A stretch of 64,000 nt of DNA from assembly GCF_037042905.1 (NCBI RefSeq), contig NC_087246.1, forward strand, positions 13,844,233 to 13,908,232, written 5' to 3'. The position numbers and the translations under genes were made by a program. The notes under the pieces were generated by a model, which ran no database searches, was not told where the DNA came from, and worked only from the letters and a program-made list of their open reading frames with translations. Positions 13,236 through 63,635 of this stretch are shown here, piece after piece. Source of the stretch: Lytechinus pictus. Lineage: Eukaryota. The number at the start of each line of letters is the position of its first letter. Within the stretch, counting starts at the first letter, position 1.

Positions 13236-15730
13236 ATCATTTGGGTTACCTCGAGCGAAGTTCGTGCAGGCTCCACTCCACTACCGCTACACTACAGCTA
13301 CACTACACTCCACCTACCCGAACTTCGAGACGGTGAACCAGTTCGGATATGGATGGAAATCATGCTTATCGTAAATAACTTAATATCTTACTCTACACCC
13401 GTATTTCACTCCGTTTCCATCCTCCGGTTTATTTAATTGCTACCACCAAAGTTCCAAACAGATATCCGAACGGTTTCCGCCCGCGTGGACGGATAACGCC
13501 TTAGTTTAACGGTTTTCATTTTTCGGGTTCGGGTATCCGTGGACACTGATTCACCACTTTCCTGTCACAAAAACTCATTAAATTTAGTAAGACTCACCAA
13601 AAAATTTATAAGTTTTAGACTTTTAGTCGCCAATATAATCACCAATATCAGTTAATCTTCTTCGGTAATAATATATTCCCGCCGAAAACCATCGTTTTTA
13701 TATCAGTTTTGAAACATGACCTGTCTTATATCAGTTTTGGAGCATGACCGTCCGTGAATGGAGTAAAGTTCCATTCTGACAACGATGGCGATTTTACTAT
13801 GGTGTCGCTTAAGATCGTTTTTCTTTCCCGTCTTATGTTTTGATGATTTTAAATGCGTAACTCATAGTATATTTTCTTACCTCGACTTTCAATGCGAGTG
13901 AAGAATGAAGATAATTTGAAACCATTTAAGCGTCAAATAAATGTTGATCGGTTACTCAGGTGTGTCATGTTGTTTCTTGTAATTTATTCATCAAATGCAA
14001 AATGAATTCTACTTTTCTCACAGCAACTTTGGTTACCATGATTAGTTTTGAAACTATGAAAAGTTGAAAACGTCGAATGAATGTTGATTGCGTGTGTCAT
14101 GTTGTTTCTTGTAATTTATTCATCAAATGCAAAATGAATTTTACTTTTTCTCACAGCAACTTTGGTTACAAATGAAGATGATTATTTTTCAAACTATGAA
14201 AAGTTGAAAACGTCGAATAAATGTTGATTGCGTGTGTCATGTTGTTTTTGTGATTTGATAATGGCGGACTTTGTGATGAATGATAATGAGAGTGAAACTG
14301 AAATGAATGACGATGATGATGAGTGATGGCTAGTGAAAATGATTTTAAATAATTATCAAGATTGGTGAAGATGATAGCAATGAATGATGATGAGAATTAT
14401 GAAAGAATGATAATTGTCAATTGAAAATCTCTTTCATGAATTAATATTCAATATATAAATTACAAAACACACATTTTCCTTTCTTTCAGTTTAAATGGCA
14501 TATCCACTATAAATTTTGATATCCATCATCACGTAAACAACAATACTTAAAAGGCGGTATCGTGCCAGAAAAAAGGTTTATGATGTGCGCCCGCCGAGTA
14601 TGTGGTCGGTTGTGAATCGACGTGTTTTGCAGTAAAACTTACTGGTGATGAATGTAAGTGATTAGTTACTGATACTGTGATTAAATCTTGTCTTTAATCT
14701 TTGTTAGAAGTGTGATTATGTTTCAGAAGTTGAGAAATGAGAAGCTTGGCTATAATTTGGGGAATGGGGAGAAACCCGACATGAAAATATTCCAAGTACG
14801 ATCCCATTTGAAGGTGTAGCGAGTGTAATGTGACCAAATATATATCGGACGATTCACTCCAGACACGTCCAGCCAGGACAGCACGTGCGTGAGCTGAATG
14901 ATGTAGGCCTGTCTGGTTTTAGACTTTTAGTAATAGTAGACTCGCACTTACACTCGCCTCTGTCAAATTCATTGCATCTTATTTCATTCGATCGGAACTA
15001 AAAAATAAACACACATACTCTCGCAACCATTAAATGGGATCGTAACTAGGCCTGACTTGTATAACTCAAATAATAGTCATTTACTAATAGCTTACACAGT
15101 CATACGATCTACATTTGTAGCCGTAGCCTCACGCTAACTCACATTAGTCAAATTCAATTGCAAAACAGATTCAACCCAAAATATTCAGCTTCTCGTAATT
15201 TTGTGGTTTTCAGAAATATTTTACCGGTATTAGCGCACGCTGACTCTCGCCATCATCGGATAGGTTCAAAACTCAAATATAACTGAAAATCTTAAATATA
15301 ACTCAAATAAGTGCAAATGGATATTTATTATTATTTTTTATATTTCAGGGTAAAATTTCGGATACCCGTCCGCCGTCCGGTTTTCAGTGTCGGGTATCCG
15401 AATATTGAAATATCCGTTTCAAGTCAGGCCTACTCCGGTTATCCTCAAAATTGGTGATTTTGGGCCAGTATCTTTTTCCTCACACGTATTATTCACGGCC
15501 GATTTCTAAACATCGCATGCGGGTGTAGAGTAAGATATTAAGTTATTCATCTTTCTCGTTATATTTTTTTCTTAAATTTTTACGATAAACATGTTTCCAT
15601 CCCACCTTTGTGACTCGATATATCCGAACTGGTTCACTGTCTCGAAGTTCGGGTGGGTGGAGTGTAGTGTAGCGGTAGTGAAGTGGAGTGGAGCCTGCAC
15701 GAACTTCGCTCGAGGTAGTGCACGCTCCAC
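13236..15730. mobile_element. Non-autonomous DNA-transposon-like element of about 2.5 kb. It has TIRs of about 200 bp (ctacctcgagcgaagttcgtgcaggctccactcc...ccgtatttcactccgt.tccatcctc), subterminal inverted GGATACCCG/CGGGTATCC motifs, and an internal tandem repeat.
   Basis: 13236-13440 is the reverse complement of 15480-15730. Subterminal motifs lie at 13455-13545 and 15355-15420. Confidence 0.7.
13958..14262. repeat. Internal tandem repeat, about 2.3 copies of a unit of about 135 bp (gtgtgtcatgttgtttcttgtaatttattcatcaaatgcaaaatgaatt...)
   Basis: Direct repeats at 13958-14091, 14092-14233 and a partial copy from 14234. Confidence 0.8.
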
Positions 15731-16230: not shown

Positions 16231-17520
16231 ATTGGGGTAGACAGCTGGCAGCCGTCTGTTTCGAGGATTTTTTAAAACATTTTTTTTTTCTCCTCGTGCA
16301 CAAACGGCTCGTGATCGTGCAGCTGCCATTAGGGGATTGACAAAGCAAATTCCCCCAACGGGGCTCATTGATTTGTGTCTTTCATAAAAATTAAAAAAGA
16401 ACTGGACCAAAATAAAGATTATTATTCCTTTTTGGCTTGAATAAGCTCTAAAACGGGAAAAATAAACTTAAAAGGACAATAACAGTGAATTACTTCGGCT
16501 GTCGCGCAACTTCAGTCTTCTCTTCCTTGGTTTATCCGAACTTAATACATAATCATATGGCCATTGAGTCCCTGTACAGATCGAGTTACTCGATGCATGC
16601 AATAATAAGTAACAATTTGAATATTTGAACTGATTTTCTTACTCTTATTTCTTGTAAATATTCTCATTATCATTACCCCAAAAGTAAGTATCTCAAGCCT
16701 CACTAGGAATTAAGCCCTAGCCGAGGCTTTAGTCAGTAAATGTAAAATTCTGCCACCGTGTAACACTAACGACGTAAGTTAAAACTGGCAACGCCTCCCT
16801 TGGCTCGGTCTGTGGGATTTTGAAGCTATGCACACTTTATTTATTTTGGCTTTCGTGCAAAAATATTGCATTTCCTGTGCATTAATTTCACAAATATGTT
16901 CATGATTGTAGGATAAAATAGACAAGATGAATAAATAAAATTTAAATGCAAAATTCCAAGTTGTTGTTTTTATTTGCATTCTGTTGCGGCCTCTAGAAAA
17001 CCTGAATAGGAATCGTTTGTCACAATGCAGTTTGCTGTCACAGTTCCACACACAAAGTGAACATTTTGCATTTGAAACAGATGCGCATTGTTTAAGTGGT
17101 CCATAGCTTCATTCAGCCTTAGGACCCCGCACCATAAAACTTTTAGTCGTTGGGATCCAACAGATTATTAGAAAGAATCTACTGAATTAAATTCTTCTAA
17201 ATAAGAAGTTGAAGGATGACGGGGAGGAGGAGAAGAAGAAATGGGATCTACAAGTACATTGTACACTTGCTATTCTTTGCAAGAGTTTTATGTTACAATT
17301 AAACATTTAGATCTATTTCTTTTCCCCCACAAAGTTATGTACAGTACATGCTAAAAGAAGTTGGAAGAAATTTTAAGACAAGTTTGTAAAATCAGTAGTA
17401 TCTAAATGTTTTTTTTTTCCAATGAAAAATATGATTTTGCAAGGCTTTAGGGTAAATCAGATTAAAAAAAATACATGTATGTCAAAGAAAGGGCACATCT
17501 TGTTTGTATGGCAGTTTTTG

Positions 17521-18618
17521 TCTCACCTGCATAGCAGTGTGAGACTATAGGCGCCGCTTTTCCGACGGCGGCGGCGGCGTCAACATCAAATCTTAACCTA
17601 AGGTTAAGTTTTTGAAATGACAGCATAACTTAGCAAGTATATGGACCTAGTTCATGAAACTTGGCCATAAGGTTAATCAAGTATTACTGAACATCCTGCC
17701 TGAGATTCATGTCACATGACCAAGGTCAAAGGTGATTTAGAGTCAATGAACTTAGACCATGTTGGGGGAATCAACATCAAAATCTTAACCTAAGGTTAAG
17801 TTTTTGAAATGTCATCATAACTTAAAAATGTATGGACCTAGTTCATGAAACTTGGACATAAGGTTAATCAAGTATCACTGAACATCCTGCATGAGTTTCA
17901 CGTCACATGACCAAGGTCAAAGGTCATTTAGGGTCAATGAACTTTGGCCAAATTGGGGGTATCTGTTGAATTACCATCATAACTTTGAAATTTTATGGAT
18001 CTGATTTATGAAACTTAGACATAATAGTAATCAAGTATCACTGAACATCCTGTGCAAGTTTCAGGTCACATGATTAAGGTCAAAGGTCATTTAGGGTCAA
18101 TGATCTTTGGCCAAATTGGGTGTATTTGTTGAATTACCATCATTACTTTGAAAGTATATTGGTCTAGTTCATTAAACTTGGACATATAAGAGTAATCAAG
18201 TATCACTGAACATCCTGTGCGCATTTCAGGTCACATGACCAAGGTTAAAGGTCAATGAACTTTGGGCGAATGGGGGTATCTGTTGAATTACCATCATAAC
18301 TTTGAAAGTTTATGGATCTGATTCATGAAAGTTGGACATAAGAGTAATCAAGTATCACTGCACATCCTGTGCGAGTTTCAGGTCACATGATCAAGGTCAA
18401 AGGTCATATAAGGTCAATGAACTTTGGCCAAATTGGGGGTATTTGTTGAATTACCATCATATCTCTGTAAGTGTATTGGTCTAGTTCATAAAACGTGGAC
18501 ATAAGAGTAACCAAGTATCACTGAACATCTTGTGCGAGTTATAGTAGGTTTCAAAGTCAGCACTGCTGCTATATTGAATCGCGTGATGCAGGTGAGACGG
18601 CCAGAGGCATTCCACTTG
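17521..18618 (+). mobile_element. TIR-bounded element (termini gtctcacctgca...tgcaggtgagac) carrying an internal satellite-like array of 5-6 units of about 170-190 bp
   Basis: Units recur with ggtcaaaggtcatttagggtcaatgaactttggccaaattgggggtat and atcaagtatcactgaacatcctg. A second copy lies in inverse orientation at 62830-63610. Confidence 0.7.
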
Positions 18619-18837
18619 TTTTTTTCTTAACTTAAGTGTGATAATGAATTTCATTTTTTTTTAAACATAATTCATAAGTGGGAAAAAGATACAATTTTAT
18701 TAAACAGTCTTTACACTACAGTCTTTTGCTTTTTCTCTAAGGTTTGGTTTGATATAGGAAGGAAATATAAAATATCTATAAATCTGGTATCTAAGCAAAG
18801 CCTACATCTTTTATAACCTGCTCATCAAACGCTGATG

Positions 18838-31169: not shown

Positions 31170-31443
31170 GTAAGTTGCCAATGATAACAGTGCTTTGTGG
31201 CTACTACAGGGACTCTGTTGGTTTAATGGATATATTCGAATTTCAATTAATATAGACTACTTTGAGCTTAGGTTTATAGTGTGTGATAGGGTTTTTAATC
31301 AGAATAAATATGAGGACTATGATTCATGTTTGAGATTAGGTGTCATATTTGTCTTCATGTGCAGATTTTCTATTGGAGCAATTACCACTAGAGAAAACCT
31401 TCCTACCAATTGTCAAAACACAATTCTACATATTCTTTACCAG

Positions 31444-32485
31444 GTGTTATCAGCCATACCAGCGGCTATGAGAAACAGAAATACATGGCAGCGGTAAGTG
31501 TGTTACAATCAGATGACCCTGAAGACATTCAGCTCTTACCACCAGAAGAACGGGACAGTCTACTATCTAGTCCGGAGAAGAATGACAGCAGAGAAGAGAA
31601 CAAGAGACTGAAGGATGAATGGGATGACGATGATGATTGGGATGATGAAGAGGATACAGAGGAGAAGGTTGATAAGAAGAAGGTCACAGGAAGAATGGAT
31701 GCCTCGGATGAAGAAACCGATGATTCTGATGGAGATTTTGATGATGAAGATGATACAGAGAAGGAGATTGATAAGAAGAAGGTCACAGGAAAGATGGATG
31801 CTGCTGATGATGAAACCGATGATTCTGATGGTGATTGGGACGATGAAGATGATGAGGAAGAAGAAGAAGTTGTGGAACTTCTGGCAGAAATCAAAGAAAC
31901 TGAAAAAAAAGCCAAACTTGCTGCAAACCAAGCAAGTAAAGATGCAGAGAAAAATATACCCTCTGGTAAGACTGCTGATAAGGACAGCAAAGAATCAGAA
32001 GACAGCGACTTTGACTTTGACAATGATGATGAAGAAGAAGTTGAGTTTATGAATAAAAAACAGAGCAATGAAGCTCTGAAATCAGCCATGATAGTTAATA
32101 ATATCTCAGGAAATGTGAAATGTGTTGAAAATAATGCTTCCAAAAATACTGCCAATAGTACCAAGGTGCTAAAACAAGGTTCTGTTGAGAAGGACAATAT
32201 CTTGAAAGGCTCCCCCAAAGAACCTGTGACAAGAAAAACCTCTGTTGACAAAAAAGGCCTGTCTAGAACAACTTCCAGTGATTCTCTAGGTGCAGTGATC
32301 CCAGCGAATGTTTCAGTAGATGGGACTGAGCATGGGGCCAAAAAGGATTTCACAAAGGGAAGGAAGGTTGAGACTGAGATACCAGTAGAGGAGGAGAGTC
32401 CCAGGCGAGGAGATGTGAAGCCAACAAGAAGTGAGAGCAGTAGAAGTTCTGGGAGTGAGAAAGAAGAAAAGAAGAAGAAAGGAGG
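31444..32485 (+). CDS. Large gene exon 8 (1042 nt). A highly acidic, disordered region with a tandem 40-aa repeat (EEKVDKKKVTGRMDASDEETDDSDGDFDDEDDT and EKEIDKKKVTGKMDAADDETDDSDGDWDDEDDE), then a K/S-rich segment.
   Basis: Acceptor ttctttaccag|GT and a strong donor GGAGG|gtaaga. An in-frame TAA (32487-32489) lies inside the donor consensus, so the unspliced read stops there (ORF 31410..32489). Splicing continues in frame into exon 9. Confidence 0.7.
31655..31894 (+). repeat. Coding tandem duplication (2 x about 120 bp) inside exon 8
   Basis: Near-identical 120-bp units at 31655-31774 and 31775-31894, each encoding a K-rich then D/E-rich 40-aa unit. Confidence 0.8.
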
Positions 32486-32819
32486 GTAAGAAAACATGTC
32501 AATACGTTATGAAAGTCTCTTGATTTTTCACCATTGCGTTATAATAGTAACTTCCAATTCCAAAGACACATGCTGTAAACATCGTTTACTGGTAGACGAT
32601 GAACACAAAAAAAGGTGAGGAAAAAGAAGAATCCTTTATCAATCATTTAACCATTTTAGAAATCTATAGATATAAAGTTTGTTGAATTTAATGTATCTTT
32701 TTTCTTTTACCTGTTTTTCATCACTGAAGAGATGCTTTATTAATCCAACTTTTTTAGTCTAAATCTCACTATCGAAAGAAAAAGACTATTTTGAATGTGT
32801 ATGATTCTTGTTCATGTAG

Positions 32820-55984: not shown

Positions 55985-56215
55985 CATGACATATGCTTTT
56001 CCATTGATGAAGGCCACTGAACCTTCAACTCCCTGGCTGGGTGCAGGGGTATTTGTGATTGACATAGAGCTAGGTTCAATGCCTAGTAGATCAACAAAAT
56101 GCATATGATGGAGTTTTGCATAGTCTACAAACAGTGGAACAATCTCATGAATGAATGAGAGGCGTTGAATTCCCTCACTCGGCACAGGGATATGAGATTG
56201 AAATGAGTCTTAGTA
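55985..56215 (-). repeat. Two degenerate tandem copies of the 3' end of the SPT6 terminal coding exon, lying in the 3'UTR
   Basis: Plus-strand 56025-56085 (tcaactccctggctgggtgcaggggtatttgtgattgacatagagctaggttca) and 56150-56205 align with the coding segment 56295-56365 (cccctcctccctggctgggtgcaggggtgtttgagatggacattgggctaggttca). Confidence 0.65.
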
Positions 56216-56276: not shown

Positions 56277-56502
56277 TCAAATCTCTTCATCAATGAGGGG
56301 CGTTGAATCCCCTCCTCCCTGGCTGGGTGCAGGGGTGTTTGAGATGGACATTGGGCTAGGTTCATGTAGGGCAGGGCTAGGTTGGACGGCTGGGCTTCGC
56401 AGGTTCTGTTGGCGTTGTTTGGCCCAAAGGGCAGCTTGCTGGGCCCAGTCCACTGGGCCTCCAGTACGTGGCACTTCACGGCTACTGCTGCTACCACTAC
56501 TC
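56277..56502 (-). CDS. SUPT6H: SPT6 terminal coding exon (RSSGSSSSREVPRTGGPVDWAQQAALWAKQRQQNLRSPAVQPSPALHEPSPMSISNTPAPSQGGGDSTPLIDEEI*), stop TGA at 56279-56277
   Basis: Acceptor tatattcag|GAGTAGTGG; phase 2 in. The C-terminus resembles the Spt6 tail as I recall it (..[23 protein letters not shown]...[21 protein letters not shown]..). Confidence 0.85.
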
Positions 56503-60016: not shown

Positions 60017-60481
60017 CTGAAAATTAAAGATGATGAGAATACATATATTGTGAGATCATTTCCACATGTGAATATTTGCATTTACATCACATTTCTCACA
60101 AGACGGATCACATCAAGTAAGACAGAATATTTTATATATTAACAAAATCATCTATCTCTTTATGATTAACCATATGAGTACAGACAATTATGATGATGTA
60201 TAGAAAAATAAAAAAAATTGAATAAATGTTTATTTTATCTACTACAAGAAAGAAAGCAACATAAGTCCAAGGAATGGTGAAATTATGGCTCAATAAAATA
60301 GAAAAATTTCTTTGCAATGATGATGATGATTATGAAGATGATATCAATAAAGATAATGATTATGATTATGAAGATAATAATTATGGTGCATTGAGTGGGA
60401 TAGATTGCTCATAATAACAAAAACACATCTTGCATCAATATAATGTTTTAAAGTGTTAAAAGACAATGATGATATACCAAC

Positions 60482-60604
60482 CTCTTCTCCAATCTTTAAT
60501 GTTGATCCCAGACTGAAATCATTATCTTTGCCTTCTTCTTGTACATCAATATGCTGATAAATACCATCATCTACTTTCCATGTAACAGTTAAGTGATCAG
60601 CTCC
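60482..60604 (-). CDS. SUPT6H: SPT6 exon ([41 protein letters not shown])
   Basis: Acceptor ttaatag|GGAGCTG and donor GAAGAG|gttggt; 123 nt, phase 0 in and out. A partial duplicate lies at 60641-60752. Confidence 0.8.
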
Positions 60605-60640
60605 CTATTAAATCAAATTAAATCAAATCAAATCATTTAA

Positions 60641-60752
60641 TGTTGATCCCAGACTGAAATCATTATCTTTACCTTCTTCTTGTACATCAATATGCTGATA
60701 AATACCATCATCTACCTTCCATGTCACTGTCAAATGATCAGCTCCCTAATAA
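60641..60752 (-). pseudogene. SUPT6H: Partial tandem duplicate of the previous SPT6 exon, in the upstream intron. The acceptor is intact, the last 13 nt and the donor are missing, and every coding difference is synonymous.
   Basis: ggatttattag|GGAGCTGATCATTTGACAGTGACATGGAAGGTAGAT... is colinear with the exon at 60482-60604. There are six nucleotide differences, all synonymous. The copy is followed by a (TGATTT)n-like tract and then the true exon's acceptor. Confidence 0.6.
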
Positions 60753-61193
60753 ATCCAATTAAGTCAATCAAATCATTGAAAGTTAATTTTTAAATATAAT
60801 CATTCTGAATTGTTGTGTAGGAAGATTTTTTGGTGTATTTTGTGTACTTCTGTGTTGTTTCTTTTGAACAAAAATCCTCGCAAATTCTGATTTTTGTTTT
60901 ACCATTAAATTTCACAAACACATCCACATCATCATATATAATCTGGCCTGCCTACACACAATGTACGCATTCTACACTTTAATCCATAGAGATGTATTCG
61001 TGCTAGTGAGATGTATTCAAACCAGTTGCTGTGTGAGGTACCCACGATACTGAGGAAACTCCCTGACTTCACATAGCAAAAATACACATTTTAAATTTAA
61101 AAAAAAACACTACCTTCAAGTACATTTAGCATTAGAGAAAAATTTATATTGCTTATCTATCCACAAGAATAATTCATATTTGCAGAAATTTAC

Positions 61194-61309
61194 CTTACTA
61201 CTTGGTCTAATGATGACATCGCCTACATCTGATTCTCTCATCACTTTCTCAGCTTGCTTGTAGGTGATATTTTGGAAGGATGGATGCACGATAACCCTCT
61301 TCACATATG
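61194..61309 (-). CDS. SUPT6H: SPT6 exon ([39 protein letters not shown]), start of SH2 domain 1
   Basis: Acceptor aattcag|CATATG and donor AGTAAG|gtaaat; phase 1 in, phase 0 out. Confidence 0.85.
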
Positions 61310-61932
61310 CTGAATTTATATAAAGTAAAGAAAACAGTATTTAAAAAAATTGTGAATATCTTAATTAAAATCTGAAAAATAAGAAAATGTGCCTAATTTT
61401 ATTGTTACTTTCTATACATGAATACATATATAGTGACAAAACATCACATATGATAATTTTTTCTAAAGTATAAAACATTGAATTACAGGTAATACTCGGC
61501 TGCCAATTACGTAATTACGGCTGCCAAGCTACAGCTGGGGTAACAATATCCAAGTCCTTTGAAAGCGCATAGAGACATTATTCGTAATCGTGATATGCGC
61601 TATACAAGAACTGTTTATTATTATTATTACTCGTGGAACAGCGGTTCATTTCATAATCTACATAAGAAAACCATACCTGACATCCATAAATATTACGAAT
61701 GAATACAATTAAAAGAAATTTTTGAAGACTTTCTTCATTTCCCATATGCATATATTTTAAAAATTCCTATCTCTTCTAATAACAAATCAAACACAAGGTA
61801 AGAAGATGATGTTTTCTGTTGAAACGTCATGGAATATTTTTCAATAAATCTTGGTTCTGATTCACAATTTTTCATCCGATTGAACTCAAACCGAGGAATG
61901 ATATTAATCACTTCAAACAGGATGTGACTTAC

Positions 61933-62829: not shown

Positions 62830-63610
62830 AACAAGTGGAATGCCTCTGGCGGTCTCACTTGCCTCACGAGATTCAATATAGCAGCAGTGCTGACTTTGAA
62901 AACTACTATAACTTGCACAAGATGTTCAGTGATACTTGGTTACTCTTATGTACACGTTCTATGAACTAGACCAATACACTTACACAGATATGATGGTAAT
63001 TCATCAGAGACCCCCATTATGGCCAAAGTTCATTGACCTTTGACCTTGGTCATGTGACCTGAAATGCGCACAGGATGTTCAGTGATACTTGATTACTATT
63101 ATGTCCAAGTTTCATGAATCAGATCCATAAACTTTCAAAGTTATGATGGTAATTCAACAGATACCCCCAATTCGGCCAAAGTTCATTGACCCTAAATGAC
63201 CTTTGACCTTGGTCATGTGACGTGAAACTCGTGCAGGATGTTCAGTGATACTTTATTAACCTTATGTCCAAATTTCATGAACTAGGTCCATATATTTTCT
63301 AAGTTATGATGACATTTCAAAAACTTAACCTTAAGTTAAGATTTTGATGTTGATTCCCCCAACATGGTCCAAGTTCATTGACCCTAAATGACCTTTGACC
63401 TCGGTCATGTGACATGAAACTCAGGCAGGATGTTCAGTAATACTTGATTGACCTTATGGCCAAGTTTCATGAACTAGGTCCATATACTTTCTAAGTAATG
63501 TTGTCATTTCAAAAACTTAACCTTCGGTTAAGATTTGGTGTTGACGCCGCCGCCGCCGCCGCCGTCGAAAAAGCGGCGCCTATAGTCTCACTCTGCTATG
63601 CAGGTGAGAC
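62830..63610 (-). mobile_element. Second, shorter copy of the satellite-carrying TIR element, inverted relative to 17521-18618, inside a SUPT6H intron
   Basis: 62830-62900 is the reverse complement of 18545-18618. 63540-63610 (gacgccgccgccgccgccgtcgaaaaagcggcgcctatagtctcac) is the reverse complement of 17521-17590. Confidence 0.75.
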
Positions 63611-63635
63611 AAAAACAACAAACAATCTGTCTTAC

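Follow-up and report, generated by a model that had tools for sequence, protein, structure and literature searches.

The question raised by this locus is why an intron of the Spt6/SUPT6H gene contains a second, incomplete copy of the exon that follows it, and whether the silent-only differences between the two copies mean that the intronic copy serves a purpose of its own. A first-pass annotation of the window (the whole 64-kb stretch of DNA analyzed here) had described the copy and had offered purifying selection, gene conversion, a former alternative exon, or an assembly artefact as possible explanations. We find that exchange with working versions of the exon is a more likely source of the silent-only differences than a function of the copy's own, and we set out below the anatomy of the duplication, the distribution of the differences, the state of the locus in a relative, and the splicing potential of the copy.

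The window has a GC content of 34%, is without any N over its 64 kb, and holds the 3′ half of the gene on the minus strand; scans of it for Rfam families and tRNAs returned no matches. Seven colinear Spt6 exons could be placed, all of them with GT-AG borders. They were located as stop-free segments and by tblastn with homologues, and besides the exon under study they lie at ~63791-63633, ~62662-62516, ~62131-61934, the upstream exon at 61310-61194 (donor AAG/GTAAAT; here and below, a slash within a motif marks the splice position), the downstream exon at 60016-59816 (GFEDLDEIIARHIQPMAAF…KEYPG), and ~59455-59302. The exon under study, at 60604-60482, is 123 nt long and of phase 0/0, and its translation and tblastn matches colinear with Spt6 homologues support it. 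It has the acceptor TTTAATAG/G and the natural donor GAG/GTTGGT, whose GT lies at 60481-60480, and it encodes a 41-aa peptide (GADHLTV...KIGEE) in the N-terminal SH2 of the tandem SH2 domain. The assembled peptide matches the Pfam family SH2_2 (PF14633) at 2e-81, as well as S1 and Spt6_S1, and residues 1328-1524 of human SPT6 (tandem SH2) align to it without a gap (E=2e-88), one copy of the exon sufficing. By the homology of its predicted product, the gene is Spt6/SUPT6H, in its tandem-SH2 region. Spt6 is an essential transcription-elongation factor. The duplicate is contained in the 589-nt intron (61193-60605) that leads from the upstream exon to the 123-nt exon.

Three methods bear out the reported presence of a second exon copy in this intron. 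A repeat search gives a head-to-tail repeat on the same strand (60495-60626 versus 60636-60767; 132 nt, 93% identity, spacing 141), TRF reports 60491-60784 with a period of 141, 2.1 copies, and 91% matches, and blastn of the repeat aligns 151 nt at 92% identity (E=2e-57). The repeat is thus confirmed as a genuine feature of the sequence, far beyond chance. A blastn search of the whole window detected two copies only, with no third copy of the exon and no paralogue.

The duplicated unit consists of the last 31 nt of the intron together with exon nt 1-110, and one constant 141-nt register runs, uninterrupted by a spacer, across flank and exon. On the minus strand, the upstream unit (unit A) occupies 60775-60636 and unit B occupies 60635-60495, the latter running on into exon nt 111-123 and the donor; the flank of unit A is one base shorter than that of unit B. 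Alignment and sequence place the 30-nt intron flank of unit A at 60775-60746, where the decoy acceptor TTTATTAG/G is intact, as had been stated, and the exon-like 110 nt of copy 2 (exon nt 1-110, from alignment, translation, and blastn) follow at 60745-60636. The 31-nt flank of unit B (60635-60605; alignment and TRF) combines a (GATTT)n run with the productive acceptor TTTAATAG/G, and within it TRF finds a period of 5/10 at 60607-60635, corresponding to a (GATTT)n/(AAATC)n pentamer. Two details of the earlier description change accordingly. What had been taken for a (TGATTT)n tract separating the copies is the duplicated last 31 nt of the intron, with a pentamer as its repeat, and the interval that had been given for the copy, 60641-60752, includes 7 nt of acceptor flank and falls 5 nt short at the opposite end.

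The duplication junction lies at 60635/60636, where exon nt 110 (…ACATTAAA) is joined to intron position -31 (TGATTTG…), and the sequence across it reads …GGATCAACATTAAA/TGATTTGATTTGATTTAATTTG…, the slash here marking the joint. Microhomology at the junction amounts to ~2 nt (AA), which is typical of slippage or unequal exchange, and in the same region the exon's AAAGATTGG is loosely similar to the intron's CAATGATTTG. Upstream of unit A, the ancestral intron has the sequence …ACTTTCAA/TGATTTG, and weak similarity continues as far as ~60786. The homology of copy 2 stops precisely where the flank of unit B starts, one 141-nt period along, so the donor was never duplicated rather than lost later. 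A candidate second boundary duplicate at the upstream exon (61301-61341 versus 61444-61484, spacing 143) was taken as chance, its similarity ending at the exon.

The two copies differ at six positions in 110 nt, namely exon nt 12, 15, 18, 21, 30, and 75 (copy positions 60734, 60731, 60728, 60725, 60716, and 60671), and the codons concerned, real exon first, are CAC/CAT, TTA/TTG, ACT/ACA, GTT/GTG, AAA/AAG, and GGC/GGT. In-register codon comparison upholds the earlier claim that all six exonic differences are synonymous: every one falls at codon position 3, and the 36 codons give an identical peptide. The NG86 method yields dN=0 and dS=0.34, and 6 changes at 22 synonymous sites against 0 at 86 nonsynonymous sites give a Fisher p=4e-5. 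This signal is genuine, although its basis is six sites singled out beforehand as odd-looking. The intron flanks of units A and B differ by three substitutions and one indel in 31 nt (13%). The annotation had described this flank as much more diverged than the coding part, a statement that finds no statistical support, since the flank is not distinguishable from the exon part (6/110; p=0.23) or from the third codon positions (6/36; p=0.74). The pattern is better put as one in which unconstrained positions differ and constrained ones do not, and a flank as diverged as the third positions fits two functional alleles.

The differences are also unevenly distributed. Five of those in the exon lie in nt 1-30 and a single one in nt 31-110 (p=0.006), and over the whole unit 9 of the 10 differences fall within ~50 nt, leaving 1 in the other ~90 nt (p=0.0005). 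A mosaic of this kind, 9 versus 1, is the mark left by a tract of recombination or conversion. The diverged block starts ~23 nt upstream of the acceptor and ends at exon nt 30, and of the six degenerate third positions that codons 4-10 contain, five differ: those of codons 4, 5, 6, 7, and 10. Synonymous divergence is saturated in the block, compared with a dS of 0.07 for codons 11-36, and the third positions of the block are more diverged than the adjoining intron flank (p=0.0016). No simple, clock-like history of a single duplication explains such a mosaic; the diverged stretch looks as if it had been copied from a far more distant yet functional version of the exon. Of all elements of the locus, this silent-only mosaic alone is still incompletely explained.

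We compared the locus with Spt6 loci elsewhere, of which the nearest is an ENA metagenome contig (L001) with exons at ~78% DNA identity and introns that cannot be aligned. This contig carries the upstream exon, one copy of the 123-nt exon (1903-2025, 83% amino-acid identity), and two downstream exons. In this one, fairly distant relative, tblastn gave a single match to the exon and there is neither a second exon copy nor a tandem repeat, so the duplication appears to be lineage-specific. At exon nt 75, L001 and the real exon share a C, and the T in the copy, which makes a donor-like site described below, is therefore derived in the copy. A Tara metagenome scaffold (L002) of 691 nt holds the next exon only. 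Protein searches with the tandem-SH2 region returned no same-species sequence, the best identities being 64% with full coverage and, for one neighbouring exon, 85%. An exon-only protein search gave no candidates, the copy's junction-spanning ORF and a neighbouring ORF had no exact record match, and degenerate-pattern scans of JGI metagenomes and GTDB genomes gave 0 matches.

The reading that we prefer, with not quite even confidence, is that of a real and probably young tandem duplication whose silent differences were copied, through unequal exchange or gene conversion, from a functional allele that had diverged. A 141-nt head-to-tail duplication, with breakpoints 31 nt upstream of the 3′ splice site and at nt 110 of the 123-nt exon, would have been joined at the ~2 nt of microhomology beside the (GATTT)n microsatellite, lengthening the intron by 141 nt. 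The upstream unit would persist as an intronic decoy, having a full 3′ splice-site region and 110 exon nt and lacking the exon end and the donor. Productive mRNA would splice the upstream exon directly to the acceptor at 60605/60604, and transcripts using the decoy acceptor would reach a stop, through read-through or through the donor-like site AAG/GTAAAG, and would be lost to nonsense-mediated decay. The diverged ~50-nt tract of one copy would have been templated from a different functional version of the same exon, either in an unequal exchange of two diverged haplotypes at the birth of the duplication or in a later gene conversion with a functional allele. Differences already tolerated by selection in a working exon, and no others, would have been carried over, and such templating from another functional allele may account for both the silent-only pattern and the block structure. 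The C-to-T change at nt 75 would be a later point mutation in the copy that by chance made a consensus donor.

Small local duplications are common in this region, in keeping with a real event: further two-copy tandem repeats, of 140-190 nt and ~90% identity, lie within the same 64 kb, and the Spt6 3′UTR contains two rearranged fragments of the last coding exon. The analysis establishes the anatomy, the silent-only mosaic, the absence of a useful reading frame in the copy, and the single copy in the relative; we infer that the duplication is real in the organism, that it is young, and that its diverged tract is of allelic or conversion origin. Of the explanations offered previously, gene conversion comes nearest: templating from a functional exon fits the silent-only and mosaic pattern best, the event itself being something that we infer rather than something demonstrated. 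That the differences are silent only is no evidence for translation of the copy. The weak point of this templating account is that the tract is extremely diverged for two alleles, which calls for a hyper-polymorphic species, for a haplotype block of great age, or for a diverged homologue of another kind. A second point against it is that two of the three silent changes able to create a donor are among those observed (see below), which hints that something beyond passive templating may act on the copy.

An older real duplication would need no outside template: the copy would be decaying neutrally, conversion between the copies would have re-homogenized most of the unit, and the silent pattern would reflect chance together with constraint on the real exon. 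The frequency of small tandem duplicates of ~90% identity in the window speaks for this account, which we nevertheless consider unlikely. If the real exon accepts silent changes only, the chance of any one difference being silent is 0.34-0.44, and the finding was, moreover, chosen by a reader for looking unusual. The relative L001 shares the copy's state at four of the five clustered sites, as if it were the real exon that had changed. This polarity is weak, the silent sites being saturated (7/23 identity) and L001 being GC3-rich; for that reason we dropped the polarization of the clustered sites and used nt 75 alone.

The periodicity of the differences weighs against neutral decay. With a neutral copy and constraint on the real exon alone, the probability that six of six differences are silent is 0.0015-0.007, and the probability that all six fall at codon position 3 is 0.001. 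Four to five silent changes of the real exon within 19 nt would predict many changes in the copy at all codon positions, and none is seen. As a sole explanation, the placement of all changes in the constrained real exon was rejected on the same ground, because a neutral copy would then show many changes of its own. The exon fragments in the 3′UTR of the same gene provide a useful internal control for the neutral decay of an exon fragment at this locus, and their differences do include first-position changes.

The splicing potential of the copy bears on whether it is used. Both acceptors have the same AG/G context and pyrimidines at 9 of the 17 positions from -20 to -4, compared with 10-13 of 17 for the gene's other acceptors. 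Two donor-like sites are present in the copy on the minus strand. The first, AAG/GTAAAG at 60675-60667, would cut after copy nt 73; it is made by the C-to-T change at 60671, scores 6.8 bits, and is nearly identical to the real donor of the upstream exon (AAG/GTAAAT). The second, AAG/GTAGAT at 60718-60710, would cut after copy nt 30; it is strengthened by the A-to-G change at 60716 and scores 5.4 bits, versus 1.1 at the same place in the real exon. For comparison, the natural donor scores 6.2 bits, the gene's real donors range over 6.2-11.8, and the real exon is without an internal site of at least 5 bits; all these bit scores are indicative only. The description of the copy as lacking a donor accordingly holds for the natural donor, which was not duplicated, and misses two donor-like sites that the real exon does not have. 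Of 66 possible silent substitutions, 3 would create a donor-like site, and the six observed differences include two of these (post hoc p=0.03).

The predicted products of splicing into the copy are for the most part unpromising. Use of the decoy acceptor followed by read-through would give …GSTLNDLI and then a stop, with the TGA five codons past the junction, and a 73-nt cassette formed by the decoy acceptor and AAG/GTAAAG would shift the frame and end in …EEGS and a stop. A 30-nt cassette formed by the decoy acceptor and AAG/GTAGAT is predicted to add an in-frame 10-residue repeat of a beta-strand of the SH2 core. An in-register splice from copy nt 73 to real-exon nt 74, removing a 141-nt intron, would yield the normal protein, and its acceptor (…CAAGAAGAAG/G) follows a purine-rich tract. 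All predicted splice paths through the copy thus lead to a premature stop, except the weak 30-nt cassette and the in-register splice. On these predicted frames, a productive mRNA would have to skip the copy, treating it as intron, and because of this there would be no product through which coding selection could act on the copy. Purifying selection, one of the explanations originally put forward, is therefore left with no viable product, the exceptions being the 30-nt cassette and a splice with a poor acceptor. Folding of 60470-60860 against shuffles revealed no unusual RNA structure that could hide the decoy acceptor (z=+0.6).

About as unlikely as neutral decay, in our estimation, is that the copy is used, as a 73-nt poison exon feeding nonsense-mediated decay or as the first step in the birth of an intron or exon, and that splicing or coding selection has shaped the differences, including possible silent-site selection by which the real exon would prevail over the decoy. 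The equally good acceptors, the donor-like sites that rival the natural donor, and the representation of donor-creating changes among the six all point this way, as does the clustering of the differences round the 3′ splice site, where splice-site choice falls. The architecture matches that of potato RdRp, where a cryptic GTAAG donor became active, with support from RNA-seq (PMC4974935), and the in-register splice would restore the normal protein. Each predicted route nonetheless has its cost: with the strong donor the frame shifts and a stop follows at once, the 30-nt option duplicates a beta-strand within the SH2 core, and the purine-rich tract precedes the in-register acceptor. The splicing code gives no reason for a strict 3-nt periodicity, a second copy is missing from the relative, and the donor statistics were computed post hoc with scores that are indicative only. 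Somewhat less probable again is a newborn splicing element, either the 73-nt poison cassette or an exon/intron birth of the potato-RdRp type, in which the burst of silent changes would record selection settling the competition between the real exon and the decoy.

An assembly artefact, in which two divergent haplotypes of one exon were laid out in tandem, is disfavoured, and we judge it improbable. Silent differences are what would be expected between alleles of a conserved exon, the flank is as diverged as the third positions, and the adjoining (GATTT)n microsatellite is of a type that leads assemblers into error. Heterotype false duplications have been documented, false duplications of exons among them, and the gap between copies that is a listed hallmark of them (PMC9516828) is absent here, as is any N in the window. 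The junction of exon nt 110 with intron position -31 shares ~2 nt, and an overlap of haplotypes could not create such novel sequence. We found no other large, haplotig-like duplicates in the 64 kb, and nine differences in ~50 nt beside ~90 near-identical bases are hard to square with two alleles. False-duplication errors are, in addition, expected to be far larger than 141 nt.

Although tandem exon duplication is a known route to mutually exclusive splicing (PMC9013439, PMC9741552) and the copy has an intact acceptor and a conserved peptide, we reject as very improbable the suggestion that it is the remnant of a complete alternative exon whose 3′ end and donor were lost later: the 141-nt register shows that the breakpoint itself left the donor out, identical peptides (in the copy, running into a TGA) offer no isoform difference to select, the L001 ortholog has a single exon, and nt 31-110 differ at one base and so are not old.

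The Spt6 duplicate is a small and fairly ordinary structural quirk. If real, it shows cleanly, in a natural case, what remains in an essential single-copy gene after a small tandem duplication across an intron-exon boundary: a pair of equivalent 3′ splice sites at a distance of 141 nt, together with a truncated pseudo-exon. Boundary-crossing duplications have been proposed to supply the material from which new introns, cassette exons, and poison exons arise, and young examples on record are few. The locus also counsels caution: when a duplicated piece of an exon shows a dN/dS-like signal, translation does not necessarily follow, since functional alleles can pass such a signal on by unequal exchange or gene conversion. 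In genome annotation, the decoy acceptor is likely to give rise to mis-predicted isoforms. Otherwise, the duplicate is a local curiosity with no bearing on a major open question.

Several known systems invite comparison with the duplication. Poison cassette exons in regulators of gene expression, the inclusion of which leads to a premature stop, are typically conserved and regulated. The Spt6 cassette resembles them in being short, with consensus-like sites, a predicted premature stop upstream of later exon junctions, and an essential host gene; unlike them, the candidate is lineage-specific, born by duplication, and absent from the L001 ortholog. Rogers is said to have put forward, in 1989, an AGGT model in which introns are gained through tandem duplication. 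The Spt6 pair is like that model in that the copy reads A72-G73/G74-T75 where the real exon reads A72-G73/G74-C75, giving an in-register AG/GT pair on paper. With mutually exclusive tandem exons (PMC9013439, PMC9741552, PMC8373072) it shares a similar copy with its own acceptor in the adjacent intron, and it departs from them in that the copy ends at exon nt 110 without a natural donor, has 36 identical codons followed by NDLI and a stop, and appears young, with no counterpart in the L001 ortholog. Like heterotype false duplications (Ko et al. 2022, PMC9516828), the adjacent copies differ as alleles would, at silent sites only; unlike them, the pair has no gap between its members and no overlap able to make the junction.

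The closest parallel comes from intron birth. The creation of introns by segmental duplication has been demonstrated experimentally (Hellsten et al. 2011, PMC3265369), and the Spt6 architecture is also consistent with the wider set of models that derive new introns from tandem duplications. In potato RdRp a new exon and a new intron arose from a tandem duplication that crossed an intron-exon boundary (Ma, Lan & Niu 2016, PMC4974935), a structure that has RNA-seq support and is common to two species. In Spt6 as in potato RdRp, the duplicated unit combines the 3′ end of an intron with the 5′ part of the exon that follows; branch region, pyrimidine tract, and AG pass to the downstream copy, a cryptic GTAA-type donor lies in the exonic copy upstream (in Spt6 a candidate one, at an indicative 6.8 bits), and the two copies differ at about ten positions. 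Unlike the potato structure, the Spt6 copy has a strong donor that would give a 73-nt, frameshifting exon, and in the simplest predicted outcome splicing removes the whole copy along with the intron; and, whereas the potato structure is common to two species, the Spt6 duplication is absent from the relative L001.

The 123-nt Spt6 exon that has an exon-like copy in the adjacent intron is flanked by slippage-prone sequence, given that the intron directly downstream carries a microsatellite of the (ATG/ATGATT)n type (60317-60375) and that a (GATTT)n run lies at the acceptor. The upstream Spt6 exon (61194-61310, minus strand) also has a 41-nt direct repeat of 73% at its acceptor (61301-61341 versus 61444-61484; spacing, 143 nt). 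We do not take this repeat to be a real duplicate: its similarity ends before running on into the exon, and it therefore probably reflects chance in AT-rich sequence.

The Spt6 3'UTR contains two rearranged pieces of the last coding exon (56279-56365; …EPSPMSISNTPAPSQGGGDSTPLIDEEI*), at positions 56029-56078 and 56143-56178 on the minus strand. One of these fragments is 90% identical to the exon over 50 nt and has changes at first codon positions (P to S and S to T) among its differences, unlike the intronic exon copy, where no first-position changes are found.

Repeats also occur elsewhere in the window. A repeat element is present as two copies in opposite orientation (17514-18620 and 62830-63616, the latter within an Spt6 intron), which match over 714 nt at 91% and contain internal tandem repeats of 163-192 nt; it is probably a transposable element. 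A further tandem repeat, with a 140-nt period, 2.2 copies, and ∼90% identity, spans 13960-14256, and tandem duplications of about 140 nt seem to be common in this genome. On the plus strand, a long acidic ORF of 359 amino acids (31410-32489), for which no Pfam match was found, includes an in-frame tandem repeat of 99 nt in 2.3 copies (31635-31864).

The source organism of the window belongs to a poorly sampled animal lineage, since the searched collections contain just two near relatives of this Spt6 gene, both unannotated metagenome contigs, with exon DNA identities of 78% for a 6171-nt contig from ENA ERZ26222911 (L001) and 84% for a 691-nt Tara metagenome scaffold (L002).
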